Source: Escherichia coli (GTDB lineage Bacteria; Pseudomonadota; Gammaproteobacteria; Enterobacterales; Enterobacteriaceae). From it: a stretch of 64,000 nt of DNA. How positions within the stretch are numbered: the first letter of the stretch is position 1; each line of letters opens with the position of its first letter. The notes under the pieces were generated by a model. The model searched no databases. It saw only the letters and a list, made by a program, of their open reading frames with translations, and was not told the DNA's origin. Of this stretch, positions 17,869 through 22,367 are shown one piece after another. Both the position numbers and the translations under genes were made by a program. The stretch is from assembly GCF_003334765.1 (NCBI RefSeq), contig NZ_QOWT01000011.1, one strand, 5' to 3'.

Positions 17869-18201
17869 ATGTATGAAGCTCTTTTAGTAGTTTTCCTTAT
17901 TGTGGCAATTGGCCTTGTTGGTCTGATCATGCTGCAGCAAGGTAAAGGCGCTGATATGGGAGCCTCCTTCGGAGCAGGCGCTTCCGCTACGCTGTTTGGT
18001 TCAAGTGGTTCTGGTAACTTCATGACCCGCATGACGGCGCTGCTGGCAACGTTATTCTTCATCATCAGTCTGGTGCTGGGTAACATCAATAGCAACAAAA
18101 CCAATAAAGGTAGCGAATGGGAAAATCTGAGTGCACCGGCGAAAACCGAACAAACTCAGCCAGCTGCTCCGGCTAAGCCGACCAGCGATATCCCGAACTA
18201 A
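17869..18201 (+). CDS. secG: Protein-export membrane protein SecG
   Basis: In-frame ATG at 17869 within ORF 17821..18201; 110 aa MYEALLVVFLIVAIGLVGLIMLQQGKG... Confidence 0.95.
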   Translation: MYEALLVVFLIVAIGLVGLIMLQQGKGADMGASFGAGASATLFGSSGSGNFMTRMTALLATLFFIISLVLGNINSNKTNKGSEWENLSAPAKTEQTQPAAPAKPTSDIPN

Positions 18202-18215
18202 AAAGTAGTATCCGT

Positions 18216-18302
18216 GCCGAGGTGGTGGAATTGGTAGACACGCTACCTTGAGGTGGTAGTGCCCAATAGGGCTTACGGGTTCAAGTCCCGTCCTCGGTAC
18301 CA
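18216..18302 (+). tRNA. leuU: tRNA-Leu (anticodon GAG)
   Basis: 87-nt sequence GCCGAGGTGGTGGAATTGGTAGACACGCTACCTTGAGGTGG...GGTACCA with long variable arm; anticodon loop CTTGAGG; encoded CCA. Confidence 0.95.
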
Positions 18303-18310
18303 AATTCCAG

Positions 18311-18339
18311 AAAAGAGACGCTGAAAAGCGTCTTTTTTC
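18311..18339 (+). terminator. Rho-independent terminator of the secG-leuU transcript
   Basis: agacgct-gaaa-agcgtct hairpin followed by TTTTTT. Confidence 0.8.
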
Positions 18340-18760
18340 GTTTTGGTCCTGGTCTGAGGAATGGTTGTCAGGTATCTGTATCTCGTCCAGTTGCTTTACT
18401 CGTAGCTGGTACCTTGAAACGATGGTGCCGGTACGCCTTAGTTATAAATTTTTCCCTTCTACTGACATAATTGGCACTTTATTGTGTCAACTCCAGTTCC
18501 GGTACGAATACGGATATGTTTACTTCTCGATAAACCATCCTGCTCCTGTCAGTATAACGACTGATGGCTACGTTCTGCGTAATGTTTAGAGACGCATTGA
18601 TAATGTTATTTAATTACTGAGAACGCAATGGCCGCATCATTTAAAAAGAAAAAACTAACAGTGTTTCGTTCTGATATGGATCAGAGTTGAAAAACATGTC
18701 TGATATAAAATTAAACATTGTTGATAATTGTTTATATTGGTTGTGAACTTGGATTTCTGG

Positions 18761-20386
18761 ATGACAGTATTCAACAAATTTGCTAGAACTTTTAAATCTC
18801 ATTGGTTGTTGTATCTTTGTGTTATTGTTTTTGGTATTACGAACTTAGTCGCTTCTTCCGGAGCGCATATGGTTCAGCGCTTGCTGTTCTTCGTTCTGAC
18901 CATCCTGGTTGTAAAACGTATATCATCCCTTCCGCTTCGCCTGCTTGTTGCCGCACCATTTGTGTTACTGACTGCGGCAGACATGAGTATTAGCCTCTAT
19001 TCATGGTGTACCTTTGGTACAACTTTCAATGATGGATTTGCGATTAGTGTGCTCCAGAGTGATCCGGATGAAGTTGTCAAAATGCTGGGGATGTATATCC
19101 CTTATCTATGTGCCTTTGCTTTTTTATCCCTTCTTTTTTTGGCAGTAATAATAAAATATGATGTTTCCTTGCCGACAAAAAAAGTGACAGGAATATTATT
19201 GCTGATTGTCATTTCGGGCAGTTTATTTTCCGCTTGTCAATTTGCTTATAAAGATGCAAAAAATAAAAAAGCGTTCAGTCCATATATACTAGCGTCGCGA
19301 TTTGCTACCTATACGCCGTTTTTCAATCTCAACTATTTTGCTTTAGCAGCGAAAGAGCATCAAAGATTACTCTCAATTGCAAACACGGTGCCGTATTTTC
19401 AATTATCAGTCAGGGATACAGGTATTGATACCTACGTGTTGATTGTGGGGGAGTCTGTACGTGTCGACAATATGTCTTTGTATGGATATACACGCTCTAC
19501 GACACCGCAAGTTGAAGCACAAAGAAAACAGATCAAACTGTTTAATCAAGCAATAAGCGGCGCACCTTACACTGCGCTGTCGGTTCCCCTTTCTTTAACT
19601 GCTGATTCTGTTTTGAGTCATGACATTCATAATTACCCCGACAACATTATTAATATGGCTAATCAAGCAGGATTTCAGACTTTCTGGCTAAGCTCGCAAT
19701 CCGCTTTTCGGCAGAATGGTACAGCAGTTACCAGTATCGCCATGCGCGCCATGGAAACAGTTTATGTCAGAGGATTTGATGAATTGTTGTTGCCGCATTT
19801 ATCGCAAGCATTACAGCAAAATACGCAGCAAAAGAAACTGATTGTTCTTCATTTAAATGGAAGCCATGAACCGTCTTGTAGCGCCTATCCGCAATCCAGC
19901 GCCGTGTTTCAACCGCAGGACGATCAGGATGCCTGCTATGACAACTCCATTCATTACACAGATAGTTTGCTAGGTCAGGTTTTTGAATTATTAAAAGATC
20001 GCCGCGCCTCGGTCATGTATTTTGCCGACCACGGCCTGGAACGTGACCCTACGAAGAAGAACGTCTATTTTCATGGAGGCAGGGAGGCTAGCCAGCAGGC
20101 ATATCATGTCCCGATGTTTATCTGGTATAGCCCCGTTCTTGGGGATGGCGTGGATCGCACAACGGAAAACAACATCTTTTCGACAGCTTACAATAATTAC
20201 CTTATTAATGCGTGGATGGGGGTAACAAAGCCGGAACAGCCGCAAACGCTTGAGGAAGTGATTGCACACTATAAAGGAGACTCACGGGTTGTGGATGCAA
20301 ACCATGATGTTTTCGATTATGTGATGCTCAGAAAGGAGTTTACAGAGGATAAGCAAGGTAACCCCACCCCTGAAGGGCAGGGTTGA
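18761..20386 (+). CDS. yhbX: Inner-membrane sulfatase/phosphoethanolamine-transferase-family protein YhbX
   Basis: ORF track 18728..20386; ATG at 18761 gives 541 aa MTVFNKFARTFKSHWLLYLCVIVF... with N-terminal TM segments and a C-terminal sulfatase-like domain; AT-rich gene. Confidence 0.9.
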   Translation: MTVFNKFARTFKSHWLLYLCVIVFGITNLVASSGAHMVQRLLFFVLTILVVKRISSLPLRLLVAAPFVLLTAADMSISLYSWCTFGTTFNDGFAISVLQSDPDEVVKMLGMYIPYLCAFAFLSLLFLAVIIKYDVSLPTKKVTGILLLIVISGSLFSACQFAYKDAKNKKAFSPYILASRFATYTPFFNLNYFALAAKEHQRLLSIANTVPYFQLSVRDTGIDTYVLIVGESVRVDNMSLYGYTRSTTPQVEAQRKQIKLFNQAISGAPYTALSVPLSLTADSVLSHDIHNYPDNIINMANQAGFQTFWLSSQSAFRQNGTAVTSIAMRAMETVYVRGFDELLLPHLSQALQQNTQQKKLIVLHLNGSHEPSCSAYPQSSAVFQPQDDQDACYDNSIHYTDSLLGQVFELLKDRRASVMYFADHGLERDPTKKNVYFHGGREASQQAYHVPMFIWYSPVLGDGVDRTTENNIFSTAYNNYLINAWMGVTKPEQPQTLEEVIAHYKGDSRVVDANHDVFDYVMLRKEFTEDKQGNPTPEGQG

Positions 20387-20393
20387 TGTCGAA

Positions 20394-21752
<1,359 letters not shown>

Positions 21753-21788: not shown

Positions 21789-21827
21789 ACTGAATTTTTA
21801 TGCAAAATAAATGAGTTTTCATTTAAT
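21789..21827. promoter_or_regulatory. Tandem ARG boxes (ArgR operator) in the argG promoter region
   Basis: acTGAATttttATGCAaa and aaTGAgTtttcATTtAat, two 18-bp units separated by 3 bp, matching the ARG-box consensus TGAAT-N4-ATTCA; 50-90 bp upstream of argG start. Confidence 0.55.
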
Positions 21828-21962
21828 CATCTTTTATCGGAGACAGGAAGAGTTTAGTGTGTTTTTTGTAAAATAATGCGCTTAAGGGAGAGCAGGAGAA
21901 GGCAAAAGTATTCAACAAATGAAAGTGAACTGGATATTCATTCACATGATTAGCAATAAACG

Positions 21963-21992
21963 TTGACAAAATGTGGCGTGGATCACTATAAT
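21963..21992 (+). promoter_or_regulatory. Consensus-like sigma70 promoter (TTGACA-18 bp-TATAAT) upstream of metY
   Basis: Perfect -35 and -10 hexamers read directly; about 90 bp upstream of the tRNA. Confidence 0.45.
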
Positions 21993-22040
21993 GCCTGCAG
22001 ATTTTACGTCCCGTCTCGGTACACCAAATCCCAGCAGTAT

Positions 22041-22069
22041 TTGCATTTTTTACCCAAAACGAGTAGAAT
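22041..22069 (+). promoter_or_regulatory. Proximal metY/nusA-operon promoter candidate (TTGCAT-17 bp-TAGAAT)
   Basis: Hexamers with 17-bp spacer; predicted start about 8 nt before the mature tRNA 5' end. Confidence 0.5.
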
Positions 22070-22084
22070 TTGCCACGTTTCAGG

Positions 22085-22161
<77 letters not shown>

Positions 22162-22283
22162 CTTTCCCTTAGAGTCCTTTTTCAAATATACTGTGAAGAC
22201 TTCGGCCTTCGTAGTGGGATTTGAAAAAATCCTTCTGGAAAGTGCTCCAGACCGCAGTTGCGGTTATAGGGTTCAGTTATATA

Positions 22284-22309
22284 AAGCCCCGATTTATCGG
22301 GGTTTTTTG
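22284..22309 (+). terminator. Intrinsic (partial) terminator between metY and rimP
   Basis: ccccga-ttta-tcgggg hairpin followed by TTTTTT. Confidence 0.7.
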
Positions 22310-22367
22310 TTATCTGACTACAGAATAACTGGGCTTTAGGCCCTTTTTTTATGTCTTGGGGGTGGGC

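Follow-up and report, generated by a model that had tools for sequence, protein, structure and literature searches.

The TTGACA-18-TATAAT element upstream of metY was found to be, almost certainly, P-1, the upstream one of two sigma-70 promoters that precede metY in the metY-rimP-nusA-infB(-rbfA-truB-rpsO-pnp) operon. P-1 has been known since 1990, the literature covers where it starts, how strong it is, how it responds to cold and its CRP/ArgR surroundings, and there is nothing new in its interpretation as a second promoter. What may be new is an addition to these facts: P-1 lies just upstream of a remnant of the tRNA-Leu gene leuU, at the edge of what appears to be an old insertion carrying argG. 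This is a modest and testable evolutionary footnote. It would explain why two tandem promoters are found before metY, since P0, the proximal one, would be ancestral and is present everywhere, and P-1 occurs only where argG was inserted. It also draws attention to a stretch of 45 nt, a fossil tRNA 3' end, whose conservation exceeds that of the promoter spacers.

The analysis covered a window of 64,000 bases, which is the whole stretch of DNA studied, and the following genes and RNA elements were placed around the promoter:

17869-18201, plus strand: secG
18216-18302, plus strand: leuU, an intact tRNA-Leu(GAG) gene with a terminator hairpin after it, bordering the argG-bearing segment on the left
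18728-20386, plus strand: yhbX
20394-21737, minus strand: argG, divergent from metY
22085-22161, plus strand: metY, initiator tRNA-fMet (ARAGORN, Rfam tRNA, RefSeq annotation)
22250-22350: rimP leader (Rfam RF01770, 102 bits), a known element between metY and rimP
from 22368, plus strand: rimP, with a TTG start
22848 onward, plus strand: nusA
24360 onward, plus strand: infB

The RF01770 match spans two terminator-like hairpins (22283-22306 and 22331-22343). When a 701-bp query around P-1 was compared with complete E. coli genomes, it matched 5426 of 5426, many at 100% identity, and argG, tRNA-Met and rimP were annotated under the matches. The argG-metY intergenic region of the window was identical to that of K-12 MG1655. 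Within metY, position 22131 is G in the window and A in K-12 MG1655; therefore, the window strain is not K-12. This is presumably position 46, at which tRNA-fMet1 differs from the K-12-specific tRNA-fMet2, and if so, metY of this strain encodes an initiator of the fMet1 type.

The promoter region between argG and metY contains the following elements:

21789-21827, no strand assigned: pair of argG-promoter ARG boxes, 21789-21806 (15/16) and 21810-21827 (13/16), from a consensus scan
21929-21946, no strand assigned: putative ARG-box-like sequence ACTGGATATTCATTCACA, a 14/16 consensus match at -70 to -53 from the P-1 start
21963-21968, plus strand: P-1 -35 hexamer TTGACA, marked as such in PMC6511841 (Suppl. 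Fig. S9) and kept in 57/59 species with divergent argG
21969-21986, plus strand: P-1 spacer of 18 bp, AAATGTGGCGTGGATCAC, read from the sequence and overlapping most of a CRP-like match
21987-21992, plus strand: P-1 -10 hexamer TATAAT (sequence and PMC6511841, Suppl. Fig. S9)
21993-21999, plus strand: P-1 discriminator GCCTGC (21993-21998) and start A at 21999 (from PMC6511841; position computed here)
21999-22084, plus strand: 5' leader of the P-1 transcript, 86 nt, removed during tRNA maturation
22041-22077, plus strand: promoter P0, TTGCAT (22041-22046), 17 bp, TAGAAT (22064-22069), start G 22077 (scan and PMC6511841, Suppl. Fig. S9)

Sigma-70 promoters have hexamers near TTGACA and TATAAT separated by 16-18 bp, and the promoter scan scored P-1 at 12/12 against the consensus hexamers, with an 18-bp spacer. 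The element had been described in an earlier note as a near-perfect consensus promoter; it is real, and its hexamers are perfect, the spacer of 18 rather than 17 bp being its one deviation from an ideal sigma-70 promoter. The position given in that note, about 90 bp upstream of metY and between the argG ARG boxes and metY, was borne out by the consensus scan, the -10 hexamer ending 93 bp before the first base of metY. On both strands of the window, P-1 was the sole occurrence of TTGACA-N16-18-TATAAT. The more proximal promoter candidate proposed there is also present; it was framed in our scan as TTTGCA-18-TAGAAT at 22040-22069 and is the published P0, for which the framing TTGCAT-17-TAGAAT is used. 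Coordinates were converted to those of K-12 (NC_000913.3) as 3318289 + (22085 - window position), which places the P-1 start, window position 21999, at 3318375 on the minus strand. P-1 may be the same as metYp2 of RegulonDB/EcoCyc.

Three promoters are known for this operon, P-1 and P0 5' of metY and P2 3' of it (Brandi et al. 2019, PMC6511841), so that the suggestion in the earlier note of a second nusA-operon promoter matches the published P-1 of metY-nusA-infB. P-1 is credited there to Granston et al. 1990 (Granston, Thompson & Friedman, J Bacteriol 172:2336). Its core is printed as ACGTTGACAAAATGTGGC(A/G)TGGATCACTATAATGCCTGCAGATT, in which the variable spacer base is G in the K-12 line, as in the window, and A in MRE600 (PMC6511841, Suppl. 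Fig. S9). The starts of P-1, P0 and P2 were mapped by primer extension, and the "+1 Adenine" of P-1 comes after a discriminator with 5/6 G/C (PMC6511841). This start, 21999, lies 86 nt 5' of the tRNA and 7 nt after the -10 hexamer, within the 5-9 nt downstream of 21992 in which the earlier note had looked for one. P-1 is a genuine promoter with experimental validation. The K-12 coordinates of the P-1 start (3318375, or 3316397 in the older numbering) and of the P0 start gave no hits in the probably incomplete records of three start-site studies (Cappable-seq, PMC4782308; Kim 2012, PMC3415461; ROSE, PMC10301672), which does not count against the mapped start. The sequence, start site, reporter activity, in vitro holoenzyme binding and conservation of P-1 are all established. 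In the cat fusion pKKAB132, which carries P-1 only and whose insert corresponds to window positions 21899-22033 as placed by its primers, a high level of cat mRNA was observed at 37 C, with about 4-fold induction upon cold shock, and its authors regard it as confirmed that P-1 is "a very strong promoter" (PMC6511841). On the chromosome, P-1 gave a weak primer-extension signal at 37 C (PMC6511841). The same TTGACA-18-TATAAT was recovered by genomic SELEX with the RpoD holoenzyme as the promoter for metY--pnp in the metY/argG spacer (Shimada et al. 2014, PMC3946193).

To describe conservation, a RimP-based scan with one genome per species was used, which yielded 80 Enterobacterales loci. TTGACA-18-TAnAnT was found at the same place, -122 from the tRNA, in 57 of the 59 Enterobacteriaceae species with divergent argG. 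The stricter pattern TTGACA-N18-TA[TC]A[AC]T was present at the same tRNA distance in 53/59 loci, and TTGACA-18-TAAACT in 4/59 (two Raoultella and two labelled Enterobacter or Raoultella sp.); the remaining 2/59 differed, having TTGCAA-18-TATAAT at about the same place. The -10 hexamer in other genera was TATACT (30 loci), TATAAT (15), TACAAT (6), TAAACT (4) or TACACT (1). The length of the spacer was constant at 18 bp in all P-1-bearing species, and its sequence was variable. The column entropies were as follows:

30 bp upstream of the -35 hexamer: 1.75 bits per column
-35 hexamer: 0 bits per column, partly built in because the loci were picked by a pattern requiring the -35
P-1 spacer: 1.41 bits per column
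-10 hexamer: 0.31 bits per column
P-1 discriminator: 1.36 bits per column

An unbiased alignment of the loci gave the same picture of conservation. Thus, the elements of a sigma-70 promoter are conserved at orthologous positions. Within E. coli, the 61-bp core of P-1 was found in 5424 of 5426 complete genomes, identical in 3370 and with 1-3 base differences in 2054. In the three core variants that were sampled, the hexamers were intact; all carried a G-to-A change in the spacer, and one also had two changes in the discriminator. The G-to-A polymorphism at spacer position 21978 is common in E. coli.

Three loci (L025, L032 and L068) have a divergent argG and neither P-1 nor the leuU remnant. 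They have a different promoter-like site, TTGCAA-18-TATAAT (TTGAAT-17-TATAAT in L068), at about -117 relative to the 5' end of metY, and the spacer of this alternative site holds an ARG-box-like TGAATAAAATCA. These species may have arrived independently at the same arrangement of two promoters.

Downstream of the P-1 start, a copy of the end of leuU was recognised:

22003-22035, plus strand: remnant of the 3' end and trailer of tRNA-Leu(GAG) leuU, TTTACGTCCCGTC-TCGGTACACCAAATCCCAG, the right copy of a direct repeat

Its left copy (18280-18311) is formed by the 3' end of intact leuU and the trailer, and the pair flanks the (yhbX-)argG segment. The remnant repeats the final 18-26 nt of leuU and about 9 nt of trailer. 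In most genera, the region reads GATTTTAC-GTCCCGTCCTCGGTACCA-AAATCCCAGCAG, in which the middle 18 nt (GTCCCGTCCTCGGTACCA) are the exact leuU 3' end and are followed by 9 nt similar to the trailer of that gene. The 45 nt from P-1 +2 to the P0 -35 (22000-22046) were nearly invariant over about 25 genera, at 0.24-0.6 bits per column, while the P-1 spacer, discriminator and upstream DNA varied freely; just after the P-1 start, the values were 0.24-0.39 bits per column, which is more conserved than the P-1 spacer. Gene conversion from leuU was considered as the keeper of the remnant and was excluded, since in several genera the T-arm of the live leuU is now GAGTCCCATCC, whereas the remnant still has the ancestral GTCCCGTCC. 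Because GTCCCGTCC was kept where the live leuU had changed, the remnant seems to be constrained in its own right, independently of leuU; its role may lie in the DNA ahead of P0 or in the initial stretch of the P-1 transcript.

The predicted structure of the 86-nt P-1 leader was not significant (MFE -12.4 kcal/mol, z = -1.06), and an Rfam search over the leader region returned no family in the leader, the only hits being the tRNA and the rimP leader RF01770. A 9-nt pairing of the leader (22025-22033) with the hairpin region after metY (22215-22223) was dropped as a chance match because the downstream partner is not conserved, most genera having CTGGATTTG and many none. With an offset of +1978, which we take to apply here, a cluster of p19-captured double-stranded RNA would fall at about 22005-22259 of the window. 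Placed in this way, it starts about 6 nt downstream of the P-1 start and extends beyond the tRNA, which implies that the P-1 leader and metY are also transcribed in antisense. The locus of metY is among the top p19-captured clusters, at U00096.2 3,316,137-3,316,391 (PMC7373196).

The history of the locus was read from the comparison of occupied and empty sites. In 16 species, the order is secG-leuU-AAATCCCAGCA-P0-metY, with neither argG nor P-1; the genera with this empty site include Cedecea, Buttiauxella, Atlantibacter and Franconibacter, together with loci labelled Mixta and Pantoea. The argG-bearing species have secG-leuU-terminator-argG (reverse)-argG control region-P-1-remnant-P0-metY. 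P0 was found both in species with argG at the metY locus and in those without it. The argG segment thus shows features of a tRNA-targeted segment, in that the tRNA 3' end is directly repeated at its other side and related genomes have an empty site. No integrase or other mobility gene was found: from leuU to the remnant, the only ORFs of 80 aa or more were yhbX, a 92-aa ORF lying within yhbX on the opposite strand, and argG.

The pattern of occupied and empty sites, with its repeat of the tRNA 3' end, suggests an insertion of argG into a cluster of leuU and metY, with P-1 at the right-hand limit of the inserted DNA. In this reading, P-1 is directed outward from the right end of an old argG insertion into a secG-leuU-metY cluster and replaced the lost read-through from leuU. 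The reading complements the identity of P-1, and we lean towards it. It is favoured by the 16 empty-site species, by the copy of the leuU end and trailer that lies right after P-1 in the argG species, and by the P-1 start, which precedes the repeat by 4 nt in the window. Against it stand the absence of an integrase or mobility gene and the nature of the cargo, argG being a housekeeping gene and therefore unusual in this role. Moreover, the direction of the event, insertion or loss, hinges on the position of the empty-site genera in the tree, and the arrival of P-1 with the segment and its later origin are not distinguished by the data. A literature search returned no paper linking leuU with the metY promoters; it was made without the primary promoter papers, so no claim of priority is made.

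yhbX was found in E. coli only among the sampled loci. The other loci that reach back to secG/leuU lack it, with about 190 bp from leuU to the argG 3' end, and its G+C content is 37-43%, compared with about 50-55% in its neighbours. Because of this low G+C content and the absence from other sampled loci, yhbX looks like a later insertion in the E. coli lineage. As a separate observation, an exact 14-nt direct repeat, AGTATTCAACAAAT, is present at 18766-18779, at the start of yhbX, and at 21907-21920, about 45 bp 5' of the P-1 -35; by a rough estimate, about 0.03 such pairs would be expected by chance in 4 kb.

A fuller scenario can be assembled from these parts, to which we would give even chances as a whole. 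P-1 would mark the right junction of an ancient argG insertion in secG-leuU-metY, and yhbX would have been gained later in E. coli. Read-through from leuU would no longer have reached metY after the insertion, its place being taken by a consensus promoter at the border of the insert, and the near-invariant copy of the leuU 3' end would have been put to use, either in the DNA ahead of P0 or at the beginning of the P-1 RNA.

As an alternative to a productive operon promoter, the element could be mainly a protein-binding or regulatory site, at which CRP, ArgR or a parked polymerase would adjust the activity of argG and P0. The best CRP-like match in the argG-metY intergenic region by consensus scan, AAATGTGGCGTGGATCACTATA at 21969-21990, agrees with the consensus at 12/16 specified positions, is centred at about -19.5 from the P-1 start and lies mostly inside the spacer, and the ARG-box-like sequence is directly upstream. 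Furthermore, a cat fusion with all three promoters produced far less cat mRNA than P-1 alone; this sharp drop of P-1 output in the presence of P0 and P2 was read by its authors as polymerase competition (PMC6511841). The title of Krin et al. 2003 tells of a coupling between two divergent promoters. However, P-1 transcripts from the chromosome are detectable and increase after cold shock (PMC6511841), and both CRP half-sites were retained at the homologous position in only 8/58 loci (Escherichia and Kluyvera), compared with the polymerase hexamers in nearly all. Since the hexamers were kept far more often than the CRP half-sites, selection acts on the promoter itself, and the regulatory-site alternative is improbable. 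That the element is a chance consensus match with no promoter activity in the cell is scarcely conceivable: although consensus scans alone are no proof of function and promoter-like sites were about as frequent in the window as in shuffles (3 versus 2.2), the 12/12 match occurred in 0 of 100 dinucleotide-preserving shuffles, conservation over about 25 genera is seen in the hexamers and their spacing and not in the flanks, and published primer extension and cat fusions have already refuted this explanation (PMC6511841).

Because the half-sites were kept in only 8/58 loci, CRP control of P-1 is probably lineage-specific and the promoter itself is not. CAP is said, in the work of Krin in 2003, to inhibit metY. 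Both metY and argG are RegulonDB CRP targets, and metY-argG is among the divergent pairs with one common CRP site (PMC3105977); the paper behind this listing is presumably Krin et al. 2003. The argG promoter is given as ATGAAA-17-AAAAAT (PMC3946193). The interference with this divergent promoter that the earlier note offered as its other option is in line with what Krin et al. announce in their title and with the listing in PMC3105977. A full-text literature search for the CRP-like and ARG-like site sequences gave no matches. FabR binding reported by ChIP-chip in the Salmonella metY-argG intergenic region was discarded, having been an artefact by the ChIP-qPCR of the same authors.

The working of P-1 is explained as follows. 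RNA polymerase holoenzyme binds the consensus -35 and -10 hexamers and starts at A 21999, and the transcript has an 86-nt leader and continues through P0 and metY. Processing by RNases frees tRNA-fMet, and the remainder extends into rimP, nusA and infB unless stopped at the terminators after metY. On its own, P-1 is strong; in its native setting, it competes for polymerase with P0, 78 bp downstream. The discriminator of P-1 has 5/6 G/C, the GC-rich character of stringently controlled stable-RNA promoters; across genera, at least 4 G/C were found in 38/56 unique discriminator sequences and 2-3 G/C in 18/56. The GC-rich discriminator suggests control by ppGpp and growth rate, which is the published explanation of the approximately 4-fold cold induction; ppGpp control of P-1 was "not directly demonstrated" according to the authors (PMC6511841). 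cAMP-CRP bound to the CRP-like site in the spacer would block polymerase, which fits the reported cAMP-CAP repression of metY. Both the sensitivity of P-1 to ppGpp and the exact position of CRP on it are what we infer here.

The P-1 of K-12 (Granston 1990; PMC6511841) and that of the window are identical in hexamers, 18-bp spacer, discriminator and start site, and the metY difference at 22131 between K-12 and the window strain lies outside the promoter. Like the tandem promoters of stable RNAs (rrn P1/P2 and tRNA operons), P-1 and P0 are two close sigma-70 promoters before a stable-RNA gene, and a GC-rich discriminator is common to P-1 and to those stable-RNA tandem promoters that are under stringent control. 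The spacer of rrn P1 is 16 bp, whereas P-1 has perfect hexamers and an 18-bp spacer. For P-1, relief of ppGpp inhibition after cold shock is the published interpretation (PMC6511841). The argG segment resembles genomic islands at tRNA 3' ends (attL/attR): it has an intact tRNA on one side, a copy of 18-31 nt of its 3' end on the other and an empty site in related species. It differs from such islands in having no integrase, in a cargo that in most genera is argG alone, and in a repeat copy that is under strong conservation of its own.
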